From assembly GCA_045805065.1 (NCBI GenBank), contig JBJMMA010000259.1, positions 2,874 through 66,873 of the forward strand: DNA of 64,000 bases, given 5' to 3'. The position numbers and the translations under genes were made by a program. Under the pieces are notes generated by a model, which saw only the letters and a program-made list of their open reading frames with translations, did no database searches and was not told the DNA's origin. The DNA is from Bdellovibrionia bacterium. GTDB lineage: Bacteria > Bdellovibrionota > UBA1018. The stretch's first letter is position 1. Each line of letters opens with the position of its first letter. Shown here in pieces: positions 8,945 to 64,000 of this stretch.

Positions 8945-8998
8945 GATGTCCTCTTTTTCCTGTTTTAAGCTCCTAAAATCAACAGTTAAGATGCAGCA

Positions 8999-9940
8999 AT
9001 GAGCGTTGAAAAAACTGCCCTGCCTAAAAACATCCTCGTGAACGTCAACGGAGAGTTCTATAGCGCCGATGATGCCAAAGTTTCGGTCTTTGATCGAAGC
9101 TATATCTATGGCGATAGCCTCTATGAGGTAGCCCGCACCTACGGCGGCTATTTCTTTGAGCTGGATGGCCACCTCAAAAGGCTCGGCAAATCAGCCGAGC
9201 TCTGCCACATGGTTTTAGGGCAAAGCCTGGAGACCTATCATAACGAGATTATGAGGACCCTGGCTGCATGGAAGAAAATGGCCGGCAACCAAAAGCGTGA
9301 AGCTTATTGCCGGATCATCGTCAGCCGGGGCGAAGGCCGAATCGGCTTTGGTCTTCCCTGCCTGACGTCTCCCACGCTCTTTACGATTATCGTTCAAGCG
9401 CTTGAGCCGCCTACGGCCGAGCAGTTTCAAAAGGGCTTTAACTTCCAGGTCTCCAAGCGCTTGAGAAATAACCCAAAGGCTTTGGATCCGGCCATGAAAT
9501 CCGGAAACTACCTCAATAGCCTTCTCGCTTACCTTGAGGCAGCTTCTGAGAACTATGACGATGCCCTGCTTTGCAATGCCGATGGACATGTGACTGAAGG
9601 CACAACCTTCAACATCTTCTACATCCGTCGTGGCATCATCGCGACGCCACCTCTGGATATCGGGATACTGGACGGGATCACCCGCCGCGAAGTCATTCAG
9701 ATGTGCCGTGACTCAGGCATTGAGGTCCGCGAAGTCCGATTCCCTAAAGAGCGCCTTTATGAAGCGGATGAAGTTTTCATGACAAGCTCCATTAAGGAAA
9801 TCTTTCCCGTGACCCGGATTGATGGGCGCAAGATCGGAAACGGAACGCCGGGAAAACTCACTCGCAAGCTGCACAATCAGTTCAACGAGCTGATCGCCGA
9901 ACGCACTCAGCGTGAGAACTCACGCAGGAGCACGACTTGA
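8999..9940 (+). CDS. Fold-type IV PLP aminotransferase (branched-chain or D-amino-acid aminotransferase family)
   Basis: N-terminal 'NGEFYSADDAKVSVFDRSYIYGDSLYE' is typical of class IV aminotransferases. 313 aa. Confidence 0.75.
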   Translation: MSVEKTALPKNILVNVNGEFYSADDAKVSVFDRSYIYGDSLYEVARTYGGYFFELDGHLKRLGKSAELCHMVLGQSLETYHNEIMRTLAAWKKMAGNQKREAYCRIIVSRGEGRIGFGLPCLTSPTLFTIIVQALEPPTAEQFQKGFNFQVSKRLRNNPKALDPAMKSGNYLNSLLAYLEAASENYDDALLCNADGHVTEGTTFNIFYIRRGIIATPPLDIGILDGITRREVIQMCRDSGIEVREVRFPKERLYEADEVFMTSSIKEIFPVTRIDGRKIGNGTPGKLTRKLHNQFNELIAERTQRENSRRSTT

Positions 9941-17373: not shown

Positions 17374-19131
17374 ATGAGTTCGATTTCTACCACGGACGGC
17401 GGATATCAGTACTACCAACGCAAGCTCAGCGATCTCGAGTCGGAGATGCGCGACGAGGCCAAGCGCTCTCGCGAACATTACGACGAGCGTGCCGACGCGC
17501 TTGAAAAGAAGTCGACGCAGAACGTGCGTGACTACGAAAAGAAATCTGATGAAGCCGTGAATGATGTTCGTGAGAACTCCTCTGCTCAGATGGACAAGGA
17601 GCGCGAGGCCGCACGTGCGGATGTCGAGCGCGCAAGAGCCGCAACCTACGACAAGTACGGTCGCTCGCAATCTGAGATCGCTTTCCACAAAAAGCGCGCT
17701 GACGACGCGATTCAACAGATGCAAGAGCAGATGGACTCACAAAAGCCGAAGTTTGATCGCGCGATCGAAAGCGCCTCGGCCAAGACCACTCTGGGCGCTG
17801 CTGAACGCCTGAGAAAAAACGCCGACCAGGAACACGAAAGCCGCACTCGCGAGACCACGGAGCTTCGGCAATCGATCGATAGCCTGCTTGAAAACGAAAG
17901 AGCCTACGGCAAGGAAAAAGGCCAGGGCTCGGTCGACGCTCGCCGTGAGATTGAGAACGAATCCCGCACTCGCGAGTTCGTCATGCGCAACCAGTACGAG
18001 AACGACCTTCAGCAGCAACAGCACAAGAGCGTTCAGACTGAGCACGACCTGATTCAATCGCATCAGCAGGACATGCACGATCGCGACACTCAATTCGCCA
18101 AAGACCTCCACCGCATGACTCAGCAGCATCAGGACGACATGCGCACCCTCTCTGAGAGCACCGAGCACGTCGTCAATCAGGTGCGTGACATGGCTCGCCA
18201 ACAGGCCGTTCACGCGCAAGAATCCATGGATCGCCAAGCTACCAGCATGCAGCGTGACAACCAGGAATCCCTCACCCGCCAGGCTGAGACTTTCCGACAC
18301 GAAAAACAGCTTCAGCGCGAGGAAGATCAGAGCACGATTCACCACCTGGAGAGCGAGATCAAAGGACACATCACCTCAGGTGATCCATCCTGGGTCGCCC
18401 CGGCAGCCGAAGCCAGAATGCGTGACAACTTCATGAAGGAGTTCACCAAGAAACAAGACGCCGAGATCACTCGCAACAAAGAGAAGACCGATAGCCTCCA
18501 CAAGGAATATTCAAAGCGCCTGGCCGATGTCGTCGAAGCATCAGATACGCGCATCATGACCGCAGAAGCCGATCACCGCTCCAGCGAGTATCTTCAACAG
18601 CAGACTTTGATGAACCATGTCGATGAAATCAAATCCACGCAGGAGCGAATGCTTCGTGACAAGGACTATCAAGCAAACCGCCAGATGGAGTCCCTGAATC
18701 ACAACTACAGCAATGACTTGGAGCGGCAGCGTCGCGAGTATGAAGGCGTCATCAACCAGCTGAAGTCCGACTACAGCCAAAAGATGACCGACGTGCGTCA
18801 ACAAGCCGACTTTAACGCAAAATTAGCGCAGCGCAACTTTGCGTCCCAGCAGTATGAAATCTCCAAGTCTTACGAGCGCAAGCTCGAGGAACAAAAGACT
18901 TCTTACGAAGATGCCCTCTCCAACCTCAAGGAACAGCTTGCAACGCATCAACATGAGGCCGAGCGCCGTACCCGCCAGCTATTAGATGACCAAGCCAAGG
19001 GCTATGAGCAAAAAATCGCTCAAATGGAGTACCAAACTAAGGAGCGAGAGCGTACTATCAGTGACAACTACCAGGACCAAATTGAAAAGTTGAAACGATC
19101 GAATGCTCTCCTCATCCAACGGAAATCTTAG
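17374..19131 (+). CDS. Highly charged, entirely polar coiled-coil/disordered protein (585 aa)
   Basis: A 1.76-kb ORF with a protein-like E/R/D/Q/K-rich composition and no hydrophobic segment. No signal peptide. Confidence 0.6.
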   Translation: MSSISTTDGGYQYYQRKLSDLESEMRDEAKRSREHYDERADALEKKSTQNVRDYEKKSDEAVNDVRENSSAQMDKEREAARADVERARAATYDKYGRSQSEIAFHKKRADDAIQQMQEQMDSQKPKFDRAIESASAKTTLGAAERLRKNADQEHESRTRETTELRQSIDSLLENERAYGKEKGQGSVDARREIENESRTREFVMRNQYENDLQQQQHKSVQTEHDLIQSHQQDMHDRDTQFAKDLHRMTQQHQDDMRTLSESTEHVVNQVRDMARQQAVHAQESMDRQATSMQRDNQESLTRQAETFRHEKQLQREEDQSTIHHLESEIKGHITSGDPSWVAPAAEARMRDNFMKEFTKKQDAEITRNKEKTDSLHKEYSKRLADVVEASDTRIMTAEADHRSSEYLQQQTLMNHVDEIKSTQERMLRDKDYQANRQMESLNHNYSNDLERQRREYEGVINQLKSDYSQKMTDVRQQADFNAKLAQRNFASQQYEISKSYERKLEEQKTSYEDALSNLKEQLATHQHEAERRTRQLLDDQAKGYEQKIAQMEYQTKERERTISDNYQDQIEKLKRSNALLIQRKS

Positions 19132-30625: not shown

Positions 30626-32566
30626 TTGCAATCACAGGGGGCACGTATGAGATTTCATTCTTTTTTGATGGCTGTAGCACTTTTAGGCGCACAGACCGCG
30701 TTTGGGGACGTCTGCAGCAAAGTATCCGAGAACCAGGTCGCACAATTGACCTGTCCTGCGGGTCAAACTATTACGAACATTGGTTTTGCGAGTTACGGGA
30801 CCCCCTCCGGCGCATGCGGCAGCTATAGTGTCAGCAGTTGCAACTCCAGCACCTCCAAGAGCGTCGTGCAATCGGCGTGTGTAGGCAAAGCGTCTTGCCA
30901 AGTCAGTGCTTCGAATTCCTTGTTTGGCGATCCTTGCAGTGGCATCACGAAATCTCTTGCCATTCAAGCCGTATGTTCGGCTCCTTCAACCTCAAACGCC
31001 TGCACGAGTGTGGCCGAAAGTCAGTCCGCGGCACTCACTTGTCCATCAGGAAAGGTCATTTCAAGCATTACCTTTGCGAGTTACGGGACCCCAACTGGCT
31101 CGTGCGGCAGCTTTGCAGTGAGCAGCTGTAACGCAAGCACCTCGAAGAGCGTTGTGCAATCGGCATGTGTAGGCAAAGCATCCTGCCAACTCAGCGCTTC
31201 AAATTCCTTGTTTGGCGACCCTTGCAGTGGCGTAGGCAAAAGGCTTTCTGTCCAGGCAGTTTGTTCTTCAGTGGTTCCAAAACCAAGCCCTAGTCCAAGT
31301 CCGACTGTGACTCCAAAGCCTACTCCGACGCCTACTCCATCGCCTACGCCGACTGCGACTCCGCTTCCAGCCGTGGGCTCAAATGTCGTCGTACCTAGCG
31401 CGATCGCTATCCCAGCCTCGACGCTTGCCTTGCCAAGTGGCATCGCCAACGGATCATCTGCTTCAAGCCCAACCGTTGTCAGTCTGCAATGCGGACAAGT
31501 TTATCGGGGAACGCTTGATCTCAGCTACAAATCCTACATCTCCGTGAAAGTCGCAGGTACCTGTGGCAAGCCGACCATCATTCCTGCATCCAATTCACAA
31601 GTCGGGATTAATGCTGTTGGCGCAAACACCATCAAGATCAGCGGCATCAAAATCCAGGGCGCATCTCAAGGGATCAACGTGAACAATGCGAAAACCATCA
31701 GCATTGATAACGTGGATATCTTGAACAGCTCCAACGCCGGGATTTTTTGCAGCGGTGTGAATGGCATGACTGTTTCGAACAGCAGTATCAGTAACAGCGG
31801 CGTCACGGGTGTCGACAGCCTGGGCGCGGTCAGCAACGCGACGATCACTAACACGACGGTTTATAATACCAGCAAAGGTAGCGGCGGCGCAGGTGGCGTC
31901 GGCATCTACTTCTATAACGGTACTAACAACCGGATCGATCACGTATCTGTCAGCAACTCTGCTTATCACGGAATTGTCTCTCTTGAGACAACCAATTCCT
32001 ATGTGACGAACAGCATAGCTCAAAATAGCTGCACAGGTCCTGATAAGGATTGTGGCGCAATCTACACGGCACAGAAAGCCACGCCACATGCCGGTCTTAA
32101 TCTGATCATCGACAACAACAAAGTGGTCACCAGTGGAGGCAGCGGCATCTACCTCGATGACTATGCCAATGGCGTGACCGTCTCATACAACGACGTCTCC
32201 GGATGTTCAGACGGGATGATATTGCACAATGGATACAACAACAATATCCATCACAATAAGATCGCCAACAGCGCGGTTGCTCACGTCACCATGGGCCAGG
32301 ACACTGGAACCATGCACGACAACGTGTTCACGTATAACGCGATGAACTCCACTCATGGCGAATACGGTTACCGACTTGAAACCGGAACCAACCTGAGCAC
32401 CTTTGCCCGGTATGACAACAACACCTACCAGAGCACCAATGTGAGCCACTTTGGCCGCCTCTGGCAGGGTGGCTCGAGCCCTGGCATCGACGCCAGCTAC
32501 AGCGCCTGGAAATCAACCTACATGCCAGGTCAGGATGCTCACTCAACGATGAACGGTGCCCAATAA
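30626..32566 (+). CDS. Secreted protein with two tandem SUEL-type (galactoside/rhamnose-binding) lectin domains, a Pro/Thr/Ser linker and a right-handed parallel beta-helix domain
   Basis: Signal peptide. A ~115-aa repeat occurs twice with 'ASYGTP.G.CGS..VSSCN.S.SKSVVQSACVGKASCQ.SASNSLFGDPCSG', matching the SUEL/Gal_Lectin cysteine pattern. Linker 'PKPSPSPSPTVTPKPTPTPTPSPTPTATP'. C-terminal 'NSS/NSG/NTT' repeat rungs are typical of pectin-lyase-fold beta-helices. Confidence 0.75.
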   Translation: MQSQGARMRFHSFLMAVALLGAQTAFGDVCSKVSENQVAQLTCPAGQTITNIGFASYGTPSGACGSYSVSSCNSSTSKSVVQSACVGKASCQVSASNSLFGDPCSGITKSLAIQAVCSAPSTSNACTSVAESQSAALTCPSGKVISSITFASYGTPTGSCGSFAVSSCNASTSKSVVQSACVGKASCQLSASNSLFGDPCSGVGKRLSVQAVCSSVVPKPSPSPSPTVTPKPTPTPTPSPTPTATPLPAVGSNVVVPSAIAIPASTLALPSGIANGSSASSPTVVSLQCGQVYRGTLDLSYKSYISVKVAGTCGKPTIIPASNSQVGINAVGANTIKISGIKIQGASQGINVNNAKTISIDNVDILNSSNAGIFCSGVNGMTVSNSSISNSGVTGVDSLGAVSNATITNTTVYNTSKGSGGAGGVGIYFYNGTNNRIDHVSVSNSAYHGIVSLETTNSYVTNSIAQNSCTGPDKDCGAIYTAQKATPHAGLNLIIDNNKVVTSGGSGIYLDDYANGVTVSYNDVSGCSDGMILHNGYNNNIHHNKIANSAVAHVTMGQDTGTMHDNVFTYNAMNSTHGEYGYRLETGTNLSTFARYDNNTYQSTNVSHFGRLWQGGSSPGIDASYSAWKSTYMPGQDAHSTMNGAQ

Positions 32567-46756: not shown

Positions 46757-48130
46757 TTAATTCATTGGCGGAGGATTCGACAAGAACTCAGTCATTGTCG
46801 CACCTTGATCCTTGTTCGGCACGATTAAGGTGGCCGTACGCCAGTTCGGCGTCGCCAGGAGATAACGACCGTTACCTAAGCCCGGCGCATAACCCAGACT
46901 CCACCCCGTGGTAGGGGTAGGATAATAATCAGCCCCTGTGTCGATCACGTACTTGGCGACGCTGCGATCATCTGGCTTGGACGAATCAGCAACGACAAGC
47001 CTCGTATCCACAGCCACGAAAACCGCTCTTACGTCCGCAGGATTTGGAATCCCTTTGCCCCCGCTCGAGGAGGAGCTGCCGTAGCCGTGCTCGAAGTAAG
47101 GATAGGCAGGGCGAAAGGAAACGCCACCGTCGGATTCTACTTTTCGGTCAGGCGTGCCCGCGCTGGCGAATGGGTACTTCCACAGGCCAGTGTCCGGAGC
47201 CGTGACTTGGTTCCATTGCGACCACTTGCGCGTCGAATTGGAGAGAATGTAAACTCTAAGATTTTTGATTTCTACACGCGTGTTGGTCGCGGCGTTTCCT
47301 TGAGCCTCGTACAGCGTGTACCATGCGAGCAATCCGCTACACCAGGTAGGACGCTCCCCCGTCCACCAAGATGGGATTGAGCTTCCGGCTGGTGAGTACT
47401 GCGTGATCACAGGATTGTACTGCCAGTCGAACGAAGGATTGATCACCAGCGCCTCGCTTGGAGACGACATGTCTTTCACCACTTGGTCGATTGTCAGCCC
47501 AGTTGAGGAAGTCGACGAAGGCGTTGGACTTGGCTTTACAGTCGGTGTCGGACTTGGACTTGGCTTCGGAGTCACAGTTGGACTCGGGCTCGGAATTGGC
47601 GCGGCTCCACTTGCAAAGCTCCATTTCTGATTGGCACCGGCGCCGCAATCATAGAGAATCACCGGCGTTCCATTTGCGGAATTATTTGCGGCGACATCCA
47701 TGCAGCGTCCACTCGATGCACTCACAAGCCTTCCGTTCGAGAGTGACCATTTTTGAGTTACTGAATTGTTGCAGGTCTTGGAGACGATGGGATTCAAGTT
47801 GGCGCCAGTGCCCTTGATGTCCAGGCAAAGATTGCCAGCACCAGCAAAGCTCTTCAGCTGTCCTGAGGAGTTCAGAACGAAAGACTGATTGCTTCCGCCG
47901 TTACAACTCCAGATCTCAAGCGCCGCGCCAGAAGCAGTGCTGTTAGCAGTGACATCTAAGCATATATTGGTTCCAAGGCTGCTCTTCACTGCCCCTGATG
48001 CTACGGTCGTGACTGCCGCAGCTTTGGCTGGATGGGCGGAGGCGATCAATGCAAGAGCAAGTCCTCCCGACCAGGGCGCAACTCGCTTTAAAAATGCTCT
48101 ACTCTTAATCGCTCTACAGGTTTTCATTTC
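46757..48130 (-). CDS. Secreted ricin-B (beta-trefoil) lectin domain protein with a Pro/Thr/Ser linker and an unknown C-terminal domain
   Basis: Signal peptide from the internal Met 48130. QxW repeats 'NQSFVL', 'TQKWSL', 'NQKWSF' lie around 'CLD' motifs. Linker 'PSPSPTVTPKPSPSPTPTVKPSPTPSS'. The ORF extends to 48178. Confidence 0.7.
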   Translation of the reverse strand, partial: EMKTCRAIKSRAFLKRVAPWSGGLALALIASAHPAKAAAVTTVASGAVKSSLGTNICLDVTANSTASGAALEIWSCNGGSNQSFVLNSSGQLKSFAGAGNLCLDIKGTGANLNPIVSKTCNNSVTQKWSLSNGRLVSASSGRCMDVAANNSANGTPVILYDCGAGANQKWSFASGAAPIPSPSPTVTPKPSPSPTPTVKPSPTPSSTSSTGLTIDQVVKDMSSPSEALVINPSFDWQYNPVITQYSPAGSSIPSWWTGERPTWCSGLLAWYTLYEAQGNAATNTRVEIKNLRVYILSNSTRKWSQWNQVTAPDTGLWKYPFASAGTPDRKVESDGGVSFRPAYPYFEHGYGSSSSSGGKGIPNPADVRAVFVAVDTRLVVADSSKPDDRSVAKYVIDTGADYYPTPTTGWSLGYAPGLGNGRYLLATPNWRTATLIVPNKDQGATMTEFLSNPPPMN

Positions 48131-48440
48131 ATTCCCCCGACAGGAACTGTCTATTCCGTTCCTTATTATCGCACCCAAGCTACAGTAATATCAGCTGTGT
48201 CTCTATCGACCAGTCTCGAAGACGCATAAATTCGCTGAACTTTCGCGAATTAAAGTCAATCTGTATACGCACATAGGCAATGAAATGTTTTGCATCAAAT
48301 CGAGCACCCTCTCCTTGCTCAATAGACGTTGTATAACCGATATCGGACCCCAATCTGACGAGGCCTCGGTGCCTTGCTGGGCCGCTCGCCCCCTTTTCAT
48401 CGCATGATTACCCCCTTGCATCGTGTGGTAGAATAGACGC

Positions 48441-49102: not shown

Positions 49103-51004
49103 CTATTGGGTTGAGCCACCTTGTAAAAAGAGCGACTGAAGGCGATTCATCAGCTGAGGGTTATCGATGCCACCGGGCCGGCTCACGCAGCTCTTTATCT
49201 TGTCACGATTGGAAATCTCAGCTTTGATCAAATCACAAGTCTTTTGCCTTTCTCTTGTACTGAGGGGCAACGATAAGCTCATTAATGCCTCTATCCTGAC
49301 CTCGGGCTCATCTTTCGTTTTCTCCACTAAGCATTCAAATTGCGTCTCCCCTAATTCAGGACCGGCAGTTTGGATCTGACTTGAGATCTTTGAAACAGAG
49401 CACGGCCCTTCTAACAGGTTTATCGCTTTTTCCTGAGGATCGTTTTCGACTGCGTCTTTTCTAAGGCGACTCAACATTAGCCAGGTGTTCTTGCGTAGCA
49501 CTGGCCTGCACACCGCTGGGTCTGGTTCTCTCATACATCGCTTGAAGGAAATGCCAGCCACCCATTCCAGCTTAGATTTTTGGATCTCACTCAACGGCCT
49601 TTTGAGATCCTTAATCTCATCCTGTCGATATCGAATCAATGTTTCAATGTTCGATTTGTATCCATAGTCTTTGGGTCGAGTTAATTCGCCGAACCAAGAT
49701 ACCAAGTCTTCATTGCTCCGTGCGTGGCGTATCTTTTTGATCTCAGCATTTAAATTCTCAATTTGCGTATTTATTTCCGTCGGAGTCAGGGCATGAATGG
49801 CGGCGATGACTTCACTCTTTGACTTTTCCAACGCTTCGTCCATCAATTTTTCAACACGTTTTACATTTTCATCATTACAACCTACGAAAGATTCGATTGT
49901 CCTCAGATATCGACTCTGGGAATCCAGCTCTGAACGAGCGTACTCAAATACTGCAAAATGGGTCGCCTTAGTTGCAAGGCTTAACACGTCGGGCGCTTGA
50001 GAAACGAAAGCATTGCAGGGCGAGACAATCTCGTTTCGCTCTGGAGGTCCCAGACAATAGTCGGCCAAGGTCAGATCGAAAGAGCTTTGAGGCAGAATGA
50101 GATATTGCTTAGCTCGCTCCGAGTTGTAAACCGACGACTTCATGACATCGAATAAAGCCAGTGTTCCCTCTTGGTAATGCTTTCTCGCGTTCGAATGCGC
50201 ATCGAGAAAAGACATCCCTTTTTCTAATTCCTTATTGAGATACAGAAGGTAGGAATTTGAATGATTGAGTTGAAGACACTCGGGACGATTATCGCAATTT
50301 TTCTGCTCAATTGCAGACGGAACACCTTTGTAGGCTTCAGGATCGGAAGGCTTTTCATAGTGAATCGAGACTAAACCAACCTGACTTCCAGAGGTTGAGC
50401 TGAACACCTGCACACCTGGAATGTCGGATACTGCGCGTATGGCATTTCCGCCAAAGCACGACAGCGTATTCAAATTAACACGGCCGTTGGGATTCTTCGT
50501 TTTATACTCGAGCAAAGACTTCCGAAGATCGCCTAGTCCAAAAAATTCCACATTTTCAGTAGAAGGAACGAATGCATAAGCAAATCGTACCGGTCCGTTC
50601 ACTTCTTCATTGTCTGTTAACTGGCTCGATAATTCGTCCTGTCGCAGGTAGCTTCTTGGAAAACGACCAGGATCTCCCTCAAGGGGCGATGATTTATCCG
50701 CTTGGTAAACTGTCCCATGAGAATAAATGTGAATGTCCAGTCGATCCACGCCGACTTGATCCGCGATCAACTTCCGCAGTTTCTCCGCGTTATCTCCAGG
50801 CGAGGCCCTGAACTGGATGACCTCATAGCCTTTCTTATAATAGCTCATGGAAGTGAGGTACGCAGAGTGGGCAAAATTCGATTTTAAGTTTCGGTCGTCG
50901 CCCCCATCGACGACAATGGCGACTTTTCGCCCCGCCGTCGCATATTGCGGAAAGCTTACTGTCAAAGCTGTTAAAGCGAGAACAAAAGACCGTAAGCGGT
51001 TCAT
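49103..51004 (-). CDS. Secreted protein with an N-terminal caspase-like (clan CD cysteine peptidase) domain and a large helical C-terminal region
   Basis: Signal peptide. 'KVAIVVDGGDD', a His-Gly dyad 'HIYSHGT' and a candidate catalytic Cys 'LNTLSCFGGNA', in the order seen in caspase/legumain/clostripain-type folds. Confidence 0.5.
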   Translation of the reverse strand: MNRLRSFVLALTALTVSFPQYATAGRKVAIVVDGGDDRNLKSNFAHSAYLTSMSYYKKGYEVIQFRASPGDNAEKLRKLIADQVGVDRLDIHIYSHGTVYQADKSSPLEGDPGRFPRSYLRQDELSSQLTDNEEVNGPVRFAYAFVPSTENVEFFGLGDLRKSLLEYKTKNPNGRVNLNTLSCFGGNAIRAVSDIPGVQVFSSTSGSQVGLVSIHYEKPSDPEAYKGVPSAIEQKNCDNRPECLQLNHSNSYLLYLNKELEKGMSFLDAHSNARKHYQEGTLALFDVMKSSVYNSERAKQYLILPQSSFDLTLADYCLGPPERNEIVSPCNAFVSQAPDVLSLATKATHFAVFEYARSELDSQSRYLRTIESFVGCNDENVKRVEKLMDEALEKSKSEVIAAIHALTPTEINTQIENLNAEIKKIRHARSNEDLVSWFGELTRPKDYGYKSNIETLIRYRQDEIKDLKRPLSEIQKSKLEWVAGISFKRCMREPDPAVCRPVLRKNTWLMLSRLRKDAVENDPQEKAINLLEGPCSVSKISSQIQTAGPELGETQFECLVEKTKDEPEVRIEALMSLSLPLSTRERQKTCDLIKAEISNRDKIKSCVSRPGGIDNPQLMNRLQSLFLQGGSTQ

Positions 51005-55090: not shown

Positions 55091-55480
55091 CTAGAAAACC
55101 ATTTGATCGGCACAGGCCTTCTTTGCGTAAGCAACCAGATCCTGCATCTGAAATGGCTTTTGAAAAAAGAAATCGGCGTTTAAACGGCGGGAGATCTCTT
55201 GAATCTCTGCCGCTCCAGATATCACGCAGATTTTAGGCACCCGAAGGCTCAACTGTGCGGCTAAAGACTTCAGGCCATCCACGAAGTCCTGTGCTGACAT
55301 GGCTTCCGTGTATAAGTCTAAAAGCACCAGGTCCGCCCAAATGCCAGGATTCTCGGATGCACTCTTCAGCGCAATGCCACCCTCTGCAAAGGCGCTCACC
55401 TCGAAACTTTCAAATGCGAGAAGGCTTGTTAGGCAATCTCGAATCACATCGTTGTCTTCCACAATCCAGATCTTATTCAT
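55091..55480 (-). CDS. Stand-alone receiver-domain response regulator
   Basis: 'KIWIVEDNDVIRD', 'LVLLDL' and 'ICVISGA' receiver features. The ATG at 55480 overlaps the kinase stop (ATGAATAA). The ORF extends to 55549. Confidence 0.7.
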   Translation of the reverse strand: MNKIWIVEDNDVIRDCLTSLLAFESFEVSAFAEGGIALKSASENPGIWADLVLLDLYTEAMSAQDFVDGLKSLAAQLSLRVPKICVISGAAEIQEISRRLNADFFFQKPFQMQDLVAYAKKACADQMVF

Positions 55481-58112
55481 GTGAAAACTCACCTTGAATT
55501 GGAGAGCGAGGCATTCGCACGCTGAAAACCGAGCCCTTGCCAAGAGCACTATTCACTGAAATCACTCCCCCATGTGCCCGGACAATCTCACGGCTGATAT
55601 AAAGCCCGAGCCCAAGTCCGGAGATCTTCTCGTAGGACACATTTCGCTCAAATCTTTCAAAGATTCGCTCCTGATCTTCAGGGTCAATTCCAATGCCTTG
55701 ATCCTCAAAATGCACTGAAACTTCCTTTTCGTCTGCCTCGACCCTGAAACGAATAGGCTTGCCTGAGCCATACTTCACCGCATTGATCAATAGATTGGTA
55801 AAGACCTGTTCCATCTGGATAGGATCCCATTGAACGGCAGGATCAGAATCCGAAGAAAGATTTAAAGTCTCATACGGGCCTTTTAAGTAGTGCTTGTTTT
55901 TTTCGATGATGGATTGAAGCAGACTCATCACACCCAACGAGCTTCTTTCGAGCGTCAATCTGCCCTGGTCGATTTTAGAGAGATCGAACATGCCATTGAT
56001 GAGCTTTGTCAGATGATCGATCTGTCGACTCATCGACTGTAGAGAGGCCTTGGCCGAGGCTTCAGTGATCTTCATTTGCGCCAATTGAATTTGCAGTGCC
56101 AGCGCCGTGAGTGGCGTTCTGAGCTCATGAGATGCATCGGCAATGAACTGGTCTCTGAGCGTACGTGCTTTTTGAAACCTGAGGCTCGCTTCTTCAGCCA
56201 GTCGCAAAGCGTTTTGCAAATGAGCGTTTTTCTCAGTGATCTCTTCTGTCAGCTGAACAAGACTGCCCTGCTGTGTCTTAAGTTCTCGCTGGAGAAGCTC
56301 TCGTGAGCGTTTCACTTCCATCCAGTTATGGATGCGCGCAATGAGCTCTTCTGGAGAAAAAGGTTTCAACTGAAAGTCCTGCGCTCCCCGCTGCAAGAGC
56401 TCGCTTCGAAGCTGATCATCTGCTTTTGCGGTCAACACGATCACAGGGATATCAGCCAGCTCAGCGTGTCCGCGTACGGACTTGAGCAGGTCCTCACCAC
56501 TCACCTCTGGCATCATGAGATCGGTCAGGATCACGTCTGGTCTGCATGAAAGAGCTGCTTGAAGCGCTTGGCGACCATCAAATGCCGTTTCAATGTTCCA
56601 ATGCGGACTTAGAATGCGGCGAAGAAAACCACTCATCTCGACGTTATCTTCAACCACAAGAAGCGTTCCAGCTTTAGAATGCGAGGTGGTTCCTGGAAAC
56701 GCTTCTTGATCTAAGTCAGCCAAATCATCCAAATACGGGTTGAACTCTTGAGGACCAGAAGCCTCCTCAACCGCTACGCCGGTAGGCGCACGTAAAGGCA
56801 GCACCACTCTGAATTCTGCTCCGCCCTCGGGCGAATCACCGACCGTAATCGCTCCTCGATGAAGCTCAATACAATCTTTTGCGATGGCGAGACCCAGCCC
56901 GGTACCTCCGTGCTTTCGGTTTGAGCTTTCCTCTAGCTGAAAGAACCGTTCAAAGATCTGAGTCCGCAGATGCAGTGGAACCCCGGGACCGCTATCGCTG
57001 ATTTTCAATATCAACTCAGGCGTGGCTCCCTGCTCTTTATCTTGAGTCAGTTGAGCCAGCTGGGCGGACACACGGATTGTCCCCCCGCGCGGCGTAAACT
57101 TGAAAGCGTTGGACAGGAGATTTGTCAGGAAGCGGTCGAACTGGGCTGGATCCACCTCGCCTGTCAATGAATCCGGAAGCGCGAGCTCAAATCGATAGCC
57201 GCGTTCTTGCGCCAAGTGCTCAAAGCGAGAAGCAGATGACCTGATCAGTGCTGAAAGCTCTATCCGCTGATAATGCAACGATGCGGTCCCGTTATCTCCC
57301 TTGGCCGCGTCTAAAAGATCATTCACGTGACGGAGCAGGACCTGGACATTTCGTTCGATGGTTTTAAGCTCGATTCGAGAGCTTTCGGACACACCTTGAA
57401 ATGAAAGAAGTCTGCGCGCAGGACCCAAAATCAAAGCCAAAGGTGTTCTAAGCTCATGACTGACATTCGCAAAAAAACGCGTCCGGATCTGGAGCAGCTT
57501 GGAGATCTCGTCCTTGGCTTGTTCAATCTCGATGAGCTGCTGAAAGCTCTGTCGTCTCAGGCGCTCATAAATTCCGCTAAATAGAATTGAGATGACCCCG
57601 ACTGCAGCAAGAACGAAAAGATTTACAAAAAATATGTGGGGTTGATCGATTCTGAAGCCGGCGTGAGCCAGCATCATCACAACATAGATCACAAACACCG
57701 CTGATACTTTCACGGCCATTTGTGCGACTGACCATGGGAAGAAATCTGCCAGAACTAACAGCACGATCAATCCGGTGTAATAATTGCTGGTATAGCCTCC
57801 CAGGACAATGCACTCCAGACTCAAACTGACTGCACCAATGCAGAATAGTATGAAAACTGTGAGATACGGTGTTCCGAGGGGTCTTTGCGTTCGAATCATC
57901 ACCCAGCGAGCGACAAGATAAATGGCGGCAGTCGCGAATCGAATGAGAGCAAGCTCAGAGAGTTTCTCAGGATAGACAATAAAGTCCAACGTGAGAAAAA
58001 AGGGATACATGATGATCCCGACAAGAAGTGCCGTCAAAGTAGCGGAATGGGCGATCTTGTTCTTTTGCTCAAGATAGGATCTTTCGATCAACGGAGTCCA
58101 GACTACGGCCAT
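55473..58112 (-). CDS. Hybrid sensor histidine kinase: multi-TM sensor, kinase core 1, receiver, kinase core 2
   Basis: About 6 N-terminal TM helices. H-box 'VSHELRTPLALILG' with 'GGTGLGLAIAKDCIELHRG'. Receiver 'LLVVEDNVEMSGF...DVILTDLMMPEVSG'. A second H-box 'ASHELRTPLTALAL' with 'GLGLGLYISREIVRAHGG'. Confidence 0.8.
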   Translation of the reverse strand: MAVVWTPLIERSYLEQKNKIAHSATLTALLVGIIMYPFFLTLDFIVYPEKLSELALIRFATAAIYLVARWVMIRTQRPLGTPYLTVFILFCIGAVSLSLECIVLGGYTSNYYTGLIVLLVLADFFPWSVAQMAVKVSAVFVIYVVMMLAHAGFRIDQPHIFFVNLFVLAAVGVISILFSGIYERLRRQSFQQLIEIEQAKDEISKLLQIRTRFFANVSHELRTPLALILGPARRLLSFQGVSESSRIELKTIERNVQVLLRHVNDLLDAAKGDNGTASLHYQRIELSALIRSSASRFEHLAQERGYRFELALPDSLTGEVDPAQFDRFLTNLLSNAFKFTPRGGTIRVSAQLAQLTQDKEQGATPELILKISDSGPGVPLHLRTQIFERFFQLEESSNRKHGGTGLGLAIAKDCIELHRGAITVGDSPEGGAEFRVVLPLRAPTGVAVEEASGPQEFNPYLDDLADLDQEAFPGTTSHSKAGTLLVVEDNVEMSGFLRRILSPHWNIETAFDGRQALQAALSCRPDVILTDLMMPEVSGEDLLKSVRGHAELADIPVIVLTAKADDQLRSELLQRGAQDFQLKPFSPEELIARIHNWMEVKRSRELLQRELKTQQGSLVQLTEEITEKNAHLQNALRLAEEASLRFQKARTLRDQFIADASHELRTPLTALALQIQLAQMKITEASAKASLQSMSRQIDHLTKLINGMFDLSKIDQGRLTLERSSLGVMSLLQSIIEKNKHYLKGPYETLNLSSDSDPAVQWDPIQMEQVFTNLLINAVKYGSGKPIRFRVEADEKEVSVHFEDQGIGIDPEDQERIFERFERNVSYEKISGLGLGLYISREIVRAHGGVISVNSALGKGSVFSVRMPRSPIQGEFSHE

Positions 58113-58445
58113 GCCGCGCTATGTATATGCCCTTCTCCCCCTCTTGTCAGCGAATTTCGTTACATTTCAGGGCTCTCAGTGGGCAATCCCCTGATGCGAC
58201 TTGTGTCCTTCCGCGAACATCTAGAACTCGATCAAAAGAACCCTAAGCACTTGCACAATAAGACGGATCTTCCGAGACTCCAGTAAATTCATTGATAACT
58301 ATGCCCAAGCGCCGACTTGAGCTGAGGGATTGATTCGAAGGGCCGCGAAGATGGCACATTTCTCAAAATGCGCCATCTTCGCGACAGACTGCCTGAATTG
58401 ACTTTCTTGAATTGCAGCCATATGGAAAAGTCCAAAACCTAAACT

Positions 58446-59252
58446 ATGCGCTCAAGTGAAACCAGGCCTTCTGCCAGAACTTTAACAAAGCCTTCAAAGG
58501 AATTCGTCGATCTGCTGGAAGACGAGTTCGCACGAAGAAGCAAGCGCAACCCATCGTACTCACTTCGCGCCTTCGCAAAATCCTTGGGGGTGCATCATTA
58601 TACGCTTTCAAGAATACTCAAGGAGCGACGGCCGCTGACTCTGAAGATGATTCAGAAGCTGGTATCCAAGCTCAAGATGGAACCTGAAACGGTCCAGCAA
58701 TTTCTCACTCAGTCCCGTGAGCGAAAAAGAAAACTTCCTCATTTTGAACCGCTCGAGCTTGATAAATATCAAGTCATTCACGATTGGTATCATACCGCGA
58801 TTTTTGAGCTCGTCACGGTCAAGGGATTTCAACCTACACCCGAGTGGATATCGGAGCGTCTCAACATCTCCCAACCCATTGCTGCAAGTGCTATCGACCG
58901 ATTGTTCAGGGTAGGGCTTTTGACCCAGGATAAAAACGGGAAATGGATTCAAACCTCCGCGAACATCACGACGACGCAAAATGATTTTACGACCCAAGCG
59001 CTGCGTGCTCGGCAAAAGCAAGTCCTCGAGCTCGGCATCCGCGCAGTCGATGAAATTTCTTACGAGATGCGCGTTCAGGGCGCCACAACCATAGCGATGA
59101 ACAGCAAACGCCTGCCCGAAGTTCGCAAAAGAGTGCATCAATTTCGAAAGCAACTCTGCTCGATTCTGCAAAAAGACAAAGAGCGCGATGTCGTCTATGA
59201 GCTTGTGACCTCATTTTATCCCATGACGGCTGTCAAAGGATCCAAGAAATGA
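58446..59252 (+). CDS. HTH DNA-binding protein resembling the TIGR02147 paralogous family
   Basis: N-terminal HTH 'SYSLRAFAKSLGVHHYTLSRILKERRPLTLKMIQKLVSKL'. 268 aa. Family assignment is from memory of the family description, not a search. Confidence 0.5.
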   Translation: MRSSETRPSARTLTKPSKEFVDLLEDEFARRSKRNPSYSLRAFAKSLGVHHYTLSRILKERRPLTLKMIQKLVSKLKMEPETVQQFLTQSRERKRKLPHFEPLELDKYQVIHDWYHTAIFELVTVKGFQPTPEWISERLNISQPIAASAIDRLFRVGLLTQDKNGKWIQTSANITTTQNDFTTQALRARQKQVLELGIRAVDEISYEMRVQGATTIAMNSKRLPEVRKRVHQFRKQLCSILQKDKERDVVYELVTSFYPMTAVKGSKK

Positions 59253-60328
59253 AAAATCTCTTCATCTTAACGGCCTTTATTTTGAATTTATTTTTCACTC
59301 CACGCTTGTCGATTGCCGGAGCGGATACTCATGGCGGCGGCTCGATTGTCTGCCGTGATCGCAACGGGATGATCAAGACGGATCCACTTTCTGTTGAGCT
59401 ATTAGATCTGTGGGAAGCGGAAGCGGTTTTCAAGTATCATGTTGTAAGGACAAATGAGCCTTGGGAAGTGCAAGCCAAAGAAGCAATCGAGAAACTGCGG
59501 CTATGGGACTTCGATTTGGTTTCCGAAGCCGTGCCTTATCTTGGAATTCCGCTGTGGAATGATGCGGATATTCAGCACGAACGCGAGGCCATTAACAGAC
59601 ATGTTCCGTATCGAGATTTGGTTATCGTCGACATTCAAGACCCGCGAGCTGGAGGGATGGGGATAGGCATCGCTTCTCCGAACGACACGAGAGCTGGTTT
59701 CACGAAGAAAGGCTGCGCGCTCGAAGGCGCCGCGACTTTCAACGATGCTAAAAACTATCTGATCGTCGACACGGAGATCGTCTCCAAAATGGCTCCAACC
59801 GATTACGCAGCCTTGAGAGTTCATGAGGCGGTGTACCGCGCTCTTCGAACTTTGAAGGGAGTGACGGATTCTTTGTTGGCCCGGGCGATTACCGGAATGC
59901 TTTTTACCACTGAGCCTTTACTGAACGGATCCGCAAATGCGATTCCACCCGAAGCTAAAGTTTGTAGTTCGAGAAATGGCGACTATGTATTTTCGCTCTT
60001 TCCGAAAGAAGAAAAGCTCTTTCTACAATTCAAGGTGATGCGTGGCTTGCCGGTGATCGATTCGTCCTACTCCGAAATTCCTGCGACGTCCGACCGGTTC
60101 GCCGCAACTGACAGTTCAAATCGGATCAGAGCTGCAATGGAAGAGATGCTTCTAGGGAACAATCCTACTTTCTTCATCGGTCCGCATAACGGCGAATGGC
60201 GAGATGACTGCTTAAGCGTGTCCAAGCGAGCTGCATCAAATGAGCGCCATCCCTGGAATGCGAGCGACGATCGCGTTTGTTTTGGCAAAGTGGAAACTTC
60301 GCTTTCGTCAGCTATTTATTGCTATTAA
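59249..60328 (+). CDS. Hypothetical secreted protein
   Basis: Signal peptide 'MKNLFILTAFILNLFFTPRLSIAGA'. ATGA overlap with the upstream regulator gene. No motif recognised. Confidence 0.5.
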   Translation: MKNLFILTAFILNLFFTPRLSIAGADTHGGGSIVCRDRNGMIKTDPLSVELLDLWEAEAVFKYHVVRTNEPWEVQAKEAIEKLRLWDFDLVSEAVPYLGIPLWNDADIQHEREAINRHVPYRDLVIVDIQDPRAGGMGIGIASPNDTRAGFTKKGCALEGAATFNDAKNYLIVDTEIVSKMAPTDYAALRVHEAVYRALRTLKGVTDSLLARAITGMLFTTEPLLNGSANAIPPEAKVCSSRNGDYVFSLFPKEEKLFLQFKVMRGLPVIDSSYSEIPATSDRFAATDSSNRIRAAMEEMLLGNNPTFFIGPHNGEWRDDCLSVSKRAASNERHPWNASDDRVCFGKVETSLSSAIYCY

Positions 60329-60561
60329 GATCTGCAGATTTAAGCCGGCACAACTCTTCAGTTGTGCCGGTTTTTTCGCAAATTTGCCTCGTATTTTTCA
60401 ATAGATAGCGTGTATCTAGGCTTTCGCGCTCTCTTTGAAATGTACATAATTAGTCAGCCAATGAAACAATTGAGTCACATCACGCAAATAGTACGTACGA
60501 CGGGTTGACTCACATTCTTCGATACAACTCCACTCCGTCATAAAGCGTTTGGGTTGTTTCT

Positions 60562-62637
60562 ATGAAGACATTAAAACTCGATTGGAGCGAGCTTTCATCC
60601 GATTCACGAGGCTTTGGCCTGGTTGAAATCATGATTGCTGCAGGCATCGGAAGCGTTGTGATGCTCTCGATGTCATCGATGATGACATCGATGAATCAGT
60701 CACTTCGCGGCACAAGAACTCTTTCTTCGCGCGATCAATTATACACCCGATTCGGTCGCGAAGCGGCCAACCCCACCTCGCTGGGACAAAGTCTCACCTT
60801 CGTCGGTACGACGGCATTCCCGGCAAATGGTCCGGGAAGCATGATGGATAAATGCGTGAATGGCGGCACGCCAAATGGTTGTGTCGCACGCAATTCCACC
60901 ACTTATGCTCCCATCAGCTATGGCTTCACCCTGACTGATGCATTAGGAAATCCTGTTGCAGGCCCAGACACCGCGAACGCGGCCGTCTATGACACGATGG
61001 GCGCAGCCTGCGGAAGCGCATCAACAACATCACCGTCGATCAACTGCCCAGTGATTGCTTACACTTCCTTTGTACCAGTCTGTCCTGGCGCTACGCCCGC
61101 CGCCAGTGTGCAATGTGATCGCGCTACGAGCATCATCGTCACTTACACTCTGGAACAGCGAAGCGGCATCTCGATTCCAGCCGGCACAACCTTTGCGGTT
61201 TTTAAACCCATGGCGGGAACGGTCACAACAGCGATCCCCTTTCCTGCCACAGGAACAACAGGCGTTGGAAATTTTCTCGCCAAATGGGTGTCTAACACGC
61301 AACTGAGCTCAAGTCAGGTTTACGAGGACCCCATCAATCAATACATCGGCCTGGGTACTACCACGCCTTTGTCCAAGCTGACGATTCAAGACACGAGAAC
61401 TGATACTGCAGCAAGCGCTCAGGGCGTATCCTTGATCTCCAGCCAGCAGGTGAATCCCTCGACAACCAGTAACACGCAATTTTCCGCAGGTCTTTTCATG
61501 TCGAAAGGCGTCTCCAATGTGAATCTTATGAGAGGGATCTCCTCGCTTGCAGGAATTGCGAACTGGTCGGCGCCTACTGCTACTACGCACTCCATTTACG
61601 GCACGGAGGGAGTGGCTCTAAATACATCGACGGGCGTGGCCGACTCGGCTTTTGGAGTGGCGGGAACAATCCGAAATCAAGCGGGTGGATCGATTAACTT
61701 TGCAAAAGGGGTCGGCGGATATGTGTACAACGATTCCACAGGGACGATCACAAATGCCTATGCAGGGCATTTCCAAATCAACCCTCCTCAGTCACCTCCT
61801 CTCACCGGCAATCCAATTGTCAATGCTTACGGTGTCTATATTGATCGGATCGATAATGCGACTAACAAGTGGGCGCTTTATTCTAACGACAGCAGTGCAC
61901 CTAGTTATATCGCTGGAACTTTAACGATTGGTCCGACGGGCGCATATAACGGCGCTGCGAGCCGTTTATACGTTGGAGCGGATGGCACCACGGGCCGATC
62001 CATAAATGCAGCAGGTACCATTAACGCTTCGGGCGCAGATTTCGCGGAGTGGGTCGATTGGAAGAAAGGACCTAAGCCCGAAATGGGTTCAGTCGTTTTA
62101 TATAAGGGAATTTACGTCGTTGTTTCATCAGAAAAAACAGCGGCGTTTGTTGGTAACGACAAAAAGGATTTGAGTAGATCCATCCTGGTCGCCTTCGCAG
62201 GCCAACTCCCCGTATTGATCCGAGGCCCAATTCACGTCGGTGATTTGGTGATTGGAAATGGAGATGGAACAGCCAAAGCAGTTGCTAGAAAAGACGTCAC
62301 GATCGACATGGCTCAAAAAACCGTAGGCACGGCGTGGGAGACGTCAAATGACCCTGCCGTAAAAAGAGTAAACGTCGCCGTAGGACTTGGCTTAAACGGT
62401 GGTGGCGTACGGGATATAGCTTCGCTTTCAGCTGATGTTCAAAAAGGCAAAGCCGAGAATGAAAAGCTGAAGCAAGAAAACGTCGCTTTGGCCAAAGAGC
62501 TCGGCGATCTTAAATCGCGTTTAGATCAAATCGAGAACTCACTCAAGGCCCGCGCAGATTCATCCTATTGGAAAGTTGCCCGAAGTGAAATTTTCAAATT
62601 CACTCAGACGCTAGCTCTATGCTCAGGAGGGACTTAA
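60562..62637 (+). CDS. Large (691 aa) protein with a type IV prepilin-like N-terminal cleavage/methylation segment, a Thr/Ser/Gly-rich beta-rich body and a C-terminal coiled coil
   Basis: '...SDSRG|[18 protein letters not shown]' fits the prepilin G/F-x-x-x-E(+5) pattern followed by a hydrophobic helix. C-terminal heptad-like '[30 protein letters not shown]'. Confidence 0.6.
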
Positions 62638-62638
62638 T

Positions 62639-64000
62639 ATGGAAAAGCTTTTTTCGAAAAGCTCTTTCATAGGTGAATCCCGCGGGTTGGCCATTTTAAC
62701 CTGCGCACTTACCCTCTTTCATTCTTCTCACGCAGCGTTCGCATTTTCAGAAAATGCGCAGACCTTTACGTATCAGGGCCAATTGCTCGACAGCCTGGGC
62801 AGTCCCCTTCTCGATCACACTGTTTCGATTGTTCTTTCGATCTACAATCCGGCCAAGACCTGTCTTCTCTATCAAGAGAGCCAGACCGTCGACACTTATG
62901 CGACCGATGGCATGTATTCGGTTCAAGTCGGACAATCCACAACTTCGGGAGGAAAACGCACTGCGAACGATCCGGGTTTGAGAATGGCAGCCATCTTCAG
63001 AAACGATGGCTCACAAGTCCGCTCCGCGGGCGCAACCTGTTCAGGCGGCTACATCGCATCACCCGGTGATGCGCGTCTCATGCAGGTGCAAATCACGCCA
63101 AGCTCCACCGGTGTTGCAGTCACTCTTTCGCCTGATGAAACCATTGATTCAGTTCCACAAGCCTGGTCCGCTGAAACCTTTCAGGGCATTACGCTTGGAA
63201 ATTTTATTCAGCTCTCAGGTTCTGATGCAGTTATTCCCTCGGGCAATGGCTTGAAAGTGAATGGAGCTGAAGTCATCGACTCAAACGGAAATTGGGTGGG
63301 ATCAAACTCAGGTCTCGTGGGCCCTACCGGTGCTACCGGAGTTGCTGGTGCAACGGGAGCGGTCGGACCTACAGGTGCTTCTGGTGCAACGGGAGCCACT
63401 GGCGCAGTTGGCCCAACTGGCATAACTGGACCTGCTGGCGCGGCTGGCGCTACCGGTCCAACTGGACCAGCAGGTTCCGTTGGTGCGACGGGTGCGACGG
63501 GCGTTACTGGCGCGACGGGCGCAACAGGAACGAATGGCACGAACGGTACCAATGGAGCTACCGGCGCGACGGGTGCCACCGGCGCAACAGGAGCTACAGG
63601 CACCAATGGCACTAACGGTACCAATGGTGCAACAGGTGCCACTGGAGCCACCGGAGTTACGGGAGCAACTGGCACTAACGGTTCAAATGGAGCTACCGGT
63701 GTCACTGGCGCAACCGGTGCATCAGGAACGAATGGTACCAACGGCTCAAATGGCGCTACCGGTGCGACAGGTGCGACTGGAACCACCGGGGCTACGGGAG
63801 CAACAGGCGCTACTGGAACGAACGGTACAAATGGAATCAACGGCGCTACTGGAGCAACCGGTATCACTGGCGCGACGGGTGCTACCGGCGCAACAGGAGC
63901 CACAGGCACCAATGGTGTAACTGGAGCCACCGGCACTACTGGCGCGACAGGTCCTACCGGAGTTACTGGTGCGACTGGTCCTACAGGAACGAATGGTACT
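62639..64000 (+). CDS. Secreted collagen-like (Gly-X-Y triple-helix repeat) protein, 3' end beyond the window
   Basis: ATG 62639 is preceded by 'AGGAGGG' 7 nt upstream and lies 1 nt after the upstream stop. Signal peptide '[35 protein letters not shown]'. A ~190-aa N-terminal domain follows. From about 63320 there are more than 225 residues of uninterrupted G-X-Y (GPT/GAT/GTN...). Not in the ORF track because no stop occurs before the window end. Confidence 0.75.

Follow-up and report, generated by a model that had tools for sequence, protein, structure and literature searches.

The predatory bacterium Bdellovibrio bacteriovorus uses about 21 phage-like mosaic adhesive trimer (MAT) fibres, defined by the MAT_N domain, for prey recognition (Caulton et al. 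2024; PMC10769870). In that study the N-terminal anchor was called invariable, the way in which the fibres are held on the cell was left open, and a possible interplay between MAT adhesins and type IV pili was raised. The word 'collagen' is absent from its main text, so a stalk like that of g4 below is not described there. Modular type IV pilins, including combinations of a pilin with S74, are widespread and were catalogued by Raynaud et al. (2021; PMC8179133); PilB and PilC of Streptococcus sanguinis are examples. CofB is a trimeric tip pilin that starts pilus assembly and anchors a secreted protein of the same operon (PMC6048534), and the Kil (Tad) pilus of Myxococcus xanthus carries interchangeable minor-pilin tips against different prey (PMC12075869). 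Here we describe a region of four genes, g1 to g4, at the end of a window of 64 kb (64,000 nucleotides of contig JBJMMA010000259.1, from a Bdellovibrionia bacterium), to which all positions refer unless another locus is named. The product of g3 very probably combines a pilin head, a MAT-type fibre and a chaperone resembling Peptidase_G2 (G2-like), as judged by sequence comparison and structural modelling.

The g3 gene (60562-62637, + strand) encodes a protein of 691 amino acids (aa) that reads as a mosaic of three modules. A class III signal with its leader peptide (aa 1-17, 60562-60612) was recognised by a match to Pfam N_methyl (PF07963) and by the invariant residue G17. The leader is followed by the pilin module (aa 18-232, 60613-61257), with a hydrophobic alpha1-N segment, Glu at position +5, a long alpha1 helix, a beta-sheet head and six cysteines. 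The N_methyl score was 21.6 bits for the full protein, where the gathering threshold (GA) is 21.2 bits, and 23.4 bits for the domain alone. An alignment of the pilin-head family (A3, 31 sequences, with members down to 27% identity with g3) showed an invariant G17 (-1), a conservation of at least 90% for E22 (+5) and six cysteines that are invariant or nearly so. N_methyl matched 25 of these 31 members (best E-value 2.5e-8), most of which have a short leader and Phe at +1 and are T4a/pseudopilin-like. An AlphaFold model of aa 1-238 built on A3 had a predicted local distance difference test score (pLDDT) of 89.5 and a predicted template modelling score (pTM) of 0.77. It contained a 51-residue helix (residues 19-69) and then a beta-sheet with strands between residues 120 and 224, which in this model is the architecture of a pilin. 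Foldseek comparison of the model with PDB gave nothing with an E-value below 1, and the full g3 profile matched only coiled-coil peptides among PDB sequences and no solved pilin. As far as in silico work allows, it is established that g3 has a class III signal and a pilin-like head, and this head forms a new sub-family of pilins.

An exhaustive profile search found the g3-type head in about 50 clusters (50% identity). The C-termini attached to it are swapped between S74, G2-like, collagen and Cys-rich modules. The proteins P0010 to P0014, for example, have the same pilin head and shaft as g3 with an S74 chaperone at the end, and one member of the family gave a weak Shufflon_N match. Judged from these alignments, the g3 family follows MAT-like module swapping, but the N-terminal anchor itself is exchanged. 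Accession numbers suggest, though they do not prove, that P0006 (MFL5813728.1) and P0012 (MFL5814058.1) come from the same metagenome-assembled genome (MAG) as g3, which would give it at least two further paralogues. A scan of GTDB genomes recovered the C-terminal module only, and the N-terminal pattern of the close family occurred in no species-representative genome.

The part of g3 downstream of the head resembled fibre proteins. Residues ~233-492 (61258-62037) form a predicted shaft of the tail-fibre/MAT type, recognised by homology to MAT fibre shafts; many long fibre proteins were matched to it in the profile search. Over 486 alignment columns, aa 256-682 were 39% identical to P0034, a protein with a MAT_N score of 135.7 bits. 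The segment from aa 493 to ~622 (62038-62427) was assigned to a G2-like intramolecular chaperone on the basis of homologues, a profile and invariant residues. The protein ends in a coiled coil (aa ~616-665, 62407-62556), seen as a helix at residues 616-665 of the model and in matches of the DivIC/FtsB type. Eight MAT-type fibre proteins (P0016, P0030, P0031, P0032, P0033, P0034, P0040 and P0044) had C-termini 53-63% identical to aa 457-664 of g3, and seven of the eight matched Bdello_MAT_N, six of them above the cutoff. One of these carriers is a protein of 1732 aa from the complete genome of Pseudobdellovibrio sp. HCB154, with a C-terminal module 63% identical to that of g3.

The Pfam family PF11962 (Peptidase_G2, 'IMC autoproteolytic cleavage domain') matched 14 of 21 homologues of the C-terminal module (best E-value 2.4e-8), and the G2-like module of g3 escapes standard domain scans. 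A profile of the module also matched the cleaved chaperone domain D4 of the Dpo31 tailspike (6.7e-6) and gp12 of phage phi29 (3gqh, 2.5e-3). The released gp12 domain (3gqh) starts exactly at the Asp that is aligned to D493 of g3, and D493, A495 and E496 are invariant in the module alignment (A4). Because of the homology to the phi29 gp12 and Dpo31 chaperones, g3 should cut itself before Asp493 and shed the chaperone together with the coiled coil.

A protein identical to g3 is deposited at NCBI from a Bdellovibrionia MAG (MFL5815911.1) under the name 'FtsB family cell division protein'. We rejected an FtsB/DivIC cell-division identity, as the match spans the terminal coiled coil only; the name is a database misannotation driven by the leucine-zipper-like sequence of this C-terminal coiled coil. 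An initial annotation of the region made from the letters alone (the sequence-only reading) had noticed the prepilin-type N-terminus and the coiled coil of g3, and both stood up to the comparisons above. It had missed what lies between them, the tail-fibre/MAT-type fibre with its putatively self-cleaving chaperone.

The g4 gene starts at 62639 on the + strand and runs off the window, which holds its 5' 454 codons (62639-64000). They encode a signal peptide, a MAT_N domain (aa 30-191, 62726-63211) with a score of 93.5 bits against NCBIfam NF053851 Bdello_MAT_N (cutoff 60), and a Gly-X-Y collagen-like stalk from aa 225 onward (63311-64000). From aa 225 to the window end 76 of 76 triplets start with Gly, mostly as GAT and GTN, and Pfam Collagen (PF01391) matched at 119.5 bits. 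A homologue search with the N-domain returned fragments only. The MAT superfamily is delimited by a Sec signal and by an N-domain of some 130 aa that is conserved and rich in beta structure (NF053851). The profile matches place g4 in this described family of Bdellovibrio fibres, with the uninterrupted Gly-X-Y stalk as a variation. Two further long open reading frames (ORFs) overlap the stalk, one of 242 aa with a PVAPVAP repeat on the minus strand (63208-63936) and one of 146 aa in another frame of the + strand (63480-63920), and they are shadows of the collagen repeat and not genes.

The four ORFs lie on the + strand at 58446-59252 (g1), 59249-60328 (g2), 60562-62637 (g3) and 62639 to beyond 64000 (g4). 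The coordinates of g1 and g2 overlap by 4 nt in an ATGA, and g3 and g4 meet in a coupling junction (62625-62641) with AGGAGG at 62625-62630, the TAA stop of g3 at 62635-62637, a single nucleotide and the ATG of g4 at 62639. Between g2 and g3 there are 233 bp. Beginning 14 nt past the g2 stop, a hairpin followed by a T-run resembles an intrinsic terminator (60342-60379, + strand). Its 14-bp stem has arms at 60342-60355 and 60360-60373 with 93% complementarity, and its fold of -28.2 kcal/mol (z = -6.1) was equalled by none of 200 shuffled sequences; it was absent from the output of a consensus terminator scan. Because this strong hairpin and T-run follow g2, the region reads as two transcription units, g1-g2 and g3-g4, barring read-through. 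Upstream of g3 we found a direct repeat, TTGAGTCACAT at 60470-60480 and TTGACTCACAT at 60505-60515, both on the + strand and 35 nt apart. The segment 60470-60515 is a possible promoter or operator to judge from its sequence, and a palindrome centred on CAATTG (60462-60477) adjoins the repeat. A sigma-70 promoter scan predicted none upstream of g3, and its count was no better than that for shuffled sequence.

The order g1-g2-g3-g4 recurs only in the closest relative, locus L005, whose g3 homologue (P0002) is 77% identical. The L005 orthologs of g1, g2 and g4 show 82%, 84% and 74% identity. The g3/g4 junction of L005 has the identical 1-nt spacing, and its whole g2-g3 intergenic region is 90% identical, with the terminator hairpin present and both copies of the direct repeat largely kept. 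L005 is the sole syntenic relative. The g3 homologues at 46-65% identity (L001/L002, L003/L004, L006 and L007) stand alone among metabolic genes, and the more distant pilin-head genes (L020-L022) likewise. None of these seven other pilin-head contexts had a MAT_N, collagen-like or g1-like neighbour. MAT genes were also found in tandem with one another (L008). The simplest account of why g3 and g4 are neighbours is a clustering of adhesin genes; the two are best read as a tandem pair of such genes and g1-g2 as a neighbouring unit.

g1 (58446-59252, + strand) encodes a helix-turn-helix protein of 268 aa with matches to TIGR02147 (135.1 bits, cutoff 50) and to PF14394 (DUF4423; 138.1 bits, cutoff 30), and on these scores it is an ordinary member of the TIGR02147/DUF4423 family. 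Upstream of it, in the divergent spacer that separates g1 from a hybrid histidine kinase gene (55473-58112, minus strand), lies an inverted repeat (58344-58383) with 18-nt arms of 94% complementarity and a 4-nt loop. Lacking a T-run on either strand, the repeat cannot be called a classical terminator and might serve as an operator or as an RNA element. The product of g2 (59249-60328, + strand) has 359 aa and a signal-peptide-like N-terminus, which marks it as a putative secreted protein. Its family was not recognised, as no match was found in Pfam, NCBIfam, PHROG or PDB, and among the loci fetched only L005 had an ortholog. Apart from L005, g1 and g2 were missing from every locus with a g3 homologue, and a role of the g1-g2 unit in regulation of the fibres is hypothetical. 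In Pseudobdellovibrio sp. HCB154 (L010, 8604-9395) a TIGR02147/DUF4423-like gene, 24% identical to g1, starts 37 nt downstream of the gene for the 1732-aa MAT fibre. TIGR02147 regulators may be loosely linked with fibre genes, but such a neighbour occurs in only one of five other fibre loci.

Several genes near homologues of g3 deserve mention. Within the S74-type branch, the gene directly upstream of the pilin-fibre gene codes for a small membrane protein with a HAMP-like segment and overlaps the pilin-fibre start by 4 nt (L006, 7528-8004). In P0027 such a small HAMP-like protein (aa 1-165) continues in frame into the pilin-fibre protein, a fusion that is either real or a product of the gene call. 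Downstream of distant pilin-head genes lie genes for a PMT_2 glycosyltransferase in L022 (5090-6944, 9129-10514) and for an MBOAT acyltransferase in L021 (9228-10679), and both enzymes could modify the pilin. L022 also encodes a stand-alone S74-domain protein of 139 aa, placed between PqqD-like and radical-SAM/SPASM genes. L020 (6862-9164) encodes a tandem pair of paralogues, two adjacent N_methyl proteins of 380 and 387 aa, the second with the pilin head domain. L012 carries another such pair (7350-8567 and 8568-9794), signal-peptide proteins of 405 and 408 aa that end in the G2-like module.

We favour the interpretation of g3 as a modular minor pilin of type IV which shows a trimeric tail-fibre adhesin at the filament tip. 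Taken as a whole this is moderately probable. That estimate blends our high confidence in the architecture with a more tentative view, slightly below an even chance, of display at the tip as a trimer. The prepilin peptidase PilD would take off the 17-residue leader after Gly17 and leave N-methyl-Phe18, with Glu at +5. From the predicted fold and the conservation, the pilin head (aa 18-232) would have three disulfides and would be held in the inner membrane by alpha1-N. By homology to phi29 gp12 and Dpo31, three g3 chains would trimerise from the C-terminus, and the chaperone would then cleave itself off before Asp493. The trimer of pilin heads might prime or cap a type IV filament and thereby place the fibre (aa 233-492) at the tip as an adhesin for prey or surfaces. 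g4 would be a separate, co-transcribed and Sec-dependent MAT fibre with a collagen-like stalk.

Some observations count against this interpretation. Taken by itself, g3 has a borderline N_methyl score, a point that we consider settled because the motif is conserved across the pilin-head family. The C-terminal segment of g3 gave no match of its own to PF11962 at E ≤ 0.01. A model of the full-length monomer was poor (pLDDT 50.6), with low confidence in the shaft, and was discarded together with its meaningless Foldseek matches. No type IV pilus, type II secretion system (T2SS) or prepilin peptidase genes were found in the 64-kb window, nor any pilus or T2SS machinery or prepilin peptidase in the homologue loci L001-L007 and L020-L022. 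Proximity to such machinery does not strictly define a pilin, since orphan pilins exist, and an orphan pilin gene is not a problem here, because Bdellovibrio PilD processes the pilins of two different systems whose genes lie elsewhere on the chromosome (bioRxiv 10.64898/2026.07.08.737194). The bulky trimeric shaft would have to pass a secretin channel, and we infer trimerisation, cleavage, pilus incorporation and surface display of g3 from sequence and predicted structure.

Three other explanations were considered. The prepilin-like N-terminus could be a mere membrane anchor or export signal, used in a T2SS-like route or at the inner membrane, with g3 not polymerised and the fibre periplasmic or released. 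This is unlikely in our view, since conservation of Gly at -1 and Glu at +5 down to 27% identity is a signature of filament-assembling pilins and not of a plain anchor, and since the disulfide-bonded pilin-like head is kept while everything downstream is swapped, which suggests that the head is the attachment module. A bolder proposal makes the two fibres partners: a g3 trimer at the tip of a pilus or pseudopilus would bind, and maybe export, g4 through MAT_N, and the cap would be the missing surface receptor or exporter of MAT fibres. The translational coupling of g3 and g4 across 1 nt, kept in L005, is consistent with it, the partner of the MAT N-domain is unknown, with type IV pili suggested to be in interplay (PMC10769870), and the CofB trimer docks a secreted protein of its own operon (PMC6048534), so that the pairs CofB-CofJ and TcpB-TcpF would be parallels. 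If true, it would account for the way in which the predator holds MAT fibres at its surface. We nevertheless give it little credence, for the seven other pilin-head contexts have no adjacent MAT_N gene, g3 after cleavage has no obvious docking domain, MAT genes far outnumber those of the pilin type, and the MAT-MAT tandems (L008) show that g3 and g4 may be adjacent through clustering of adhesin genes.

The four genes might also form one regulated surface-fibre apparatus, in which g1 controls g3-g4 and g2 is an accessory. The order of the genes in L005, the TIGR02147-like gene beside a MAT gene in Pseudobdellovibrio and the conserved repeats upstream of g3, which could be an operator, would fit such a unit. 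It is improbable, however, given the strong terminator after g2, the lack of g1 and g2 at all other loci of g3 homologues and the occurrence of a TIGR02147 neighbour in only one of five other fibre loci; L005 is so close (77-84% identity) that the shared order carries little weight. A single four-gene system was the proposal of the sequence-only reading, and it did not survive the terminator and the solitary pilin-head genes of the seven other contexts. The four co-oriented genes that it described were recovered, and its picture of tight packing held for g1-g2 and for g3-g4, including the 1-nt gap with a strong Shine-Dalgarno motif, but not for the g2-g3 interval with its hairpin. Its identification of g1 as a TIGR02147 regulator and of g4 as a secreted Gly-X-Y protein agreed with the profile scores. 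A functional pair of pseudopilin anchor and collagen fibre was not borne out, as the g3-g4 pairing recurs only in the 77%-identical L005. A role as surface fibres or in prey attachment remains likely and is a reasonable reading of the sequences.

Outside this region the window is ordinary chromosomal DNA with nusA, infB, rbfA, truB, hflX, mutS, pyk, trpS and scpAB, and it also encodes histidine kinases, lipases and lectin-domain proteins. Phage genes, structural ones included, were not found in the 64 kb, and we rejected a prophage tail-fibre remnant because of this housekeeping setting and the lack of phage structural genes. Other large products, maybe secreted or glycan-binding, are a SUEL-lectin and beta-helix protein (30626-32566, 646 aa), a ricin-B lectin protein (46757-48178, 473 aa) and those of two large ORFs without a Pfam match at 49103-51004 (633 aa) and 17374-19131 (585 aa). 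All four may belong to the surface or hydrolytic repertoire of the predator.

Every part of g3 belongs to a kind already known: MAT fibres, modular pilins or G2/S74 chaperones. Surveys based on InterPro already list the combination of a pilin with S74. The sequence-only reading had regarded the system as not described; this was overtaken by the MAT family of 2024, which includes g4 (PMC10769870), and by the pilins with grafted modules, pilin plus S74 among them, catalogued in 2021 (PMC8179133). Our searches of full-text literature turned up no paper connecting pilins to tail-fibre or MAT modules in predators. What g3 and its roughly 50 clusters add is that, in uncultured Bdellovibrionia, shafts of the MAT type with putatively self-cleaving chaperones are also fused to a type IV pilin head. 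Read from sequence and predicted structure only, this would tie pili to tail-fibre adhesins in a concrete, physical and testable way, and it is a hint that pili directly carry some of the prey-binding fibres.

The chaperone module of g3 is homologous to the C-terminal intramolecular chaperones of phage tail spikes and fibres (PMC4690869), such as Peptidase_G2 in phi29 gp12 and S74 in K1F and T5 pb1. As in these proteins it follows a fibre shaft, and an Asp/Glu motif is invariant where cleavage is expected; unlike them, g3 is a chromosomal bacterial gene without phage context and is fused to a pilin. CofB of the CFA/III pilus of enterotoxigenic Escherichia coli and TcpB of the toxin-coregulated pilus (TCP) of Vibrio cholerae (PMC6048534, PMC5207764) are large minor pilins with a pilin head and homotrimerising beta-rich domains, whose trimer sits at the tip, where it starts assembly and serves in adhesion or docking. 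The resemblance of g3 to them is functional and architectural only. CofB and TcpB have no sequence homology with g3, are encoded in type IVb pilus operons and lack a self-cleaving chaperone, whereas g3 had no sequence match to PDB pilins and no pilus operon in the window, and we do not count it among them. The Kil pilus and the PilV shufflon adhesins of R64 share with the g3 family the principle of variable tip domains on a constant pilin part for recognition of target cells. They belong to other pilus classes, the Kil tips are built of several proteins, and neither has a tail-fibre or chaperone module.

Similar in layout are the modular pilins of the 2021 survey (PMC8179133), where a pilin module at the N-terminus bears a grafted functional module that is presumed to be exposed at the tip. 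The S74-type relatives of g3 have exactly the IPR012902-IPR030392 architecture catalogued there. The survey read S74 as a 'peptidase' and made no link to tail-fibre chaperones, MAT fibres or predators; its 'pilin-S74 peptidase' architecture can now be re-read as a tail-fibre adhesin. With the MAT fibres the relationship is one of homology. g4 has their defining N-domain, and the shaft and the chaperone/coiled-coil module of g3 are homologous to theirs at 39-63% identity. g3 differs in having a class III signal and a pilin head in place of the Sec signal and the beta-rich N-domain, and its chaperone is G2-like and not S74. As it gave no match to NF053851 at E ≤ 1, it shares MAT modules but was not filed as a member of that family. 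The mosaic logic of the MAT fibres, with swaps of C-terminal modules that include S74, is common to the g3 family as well, which suggests that predators diversify their pilus tips by module swapping as in phage host-range genes.

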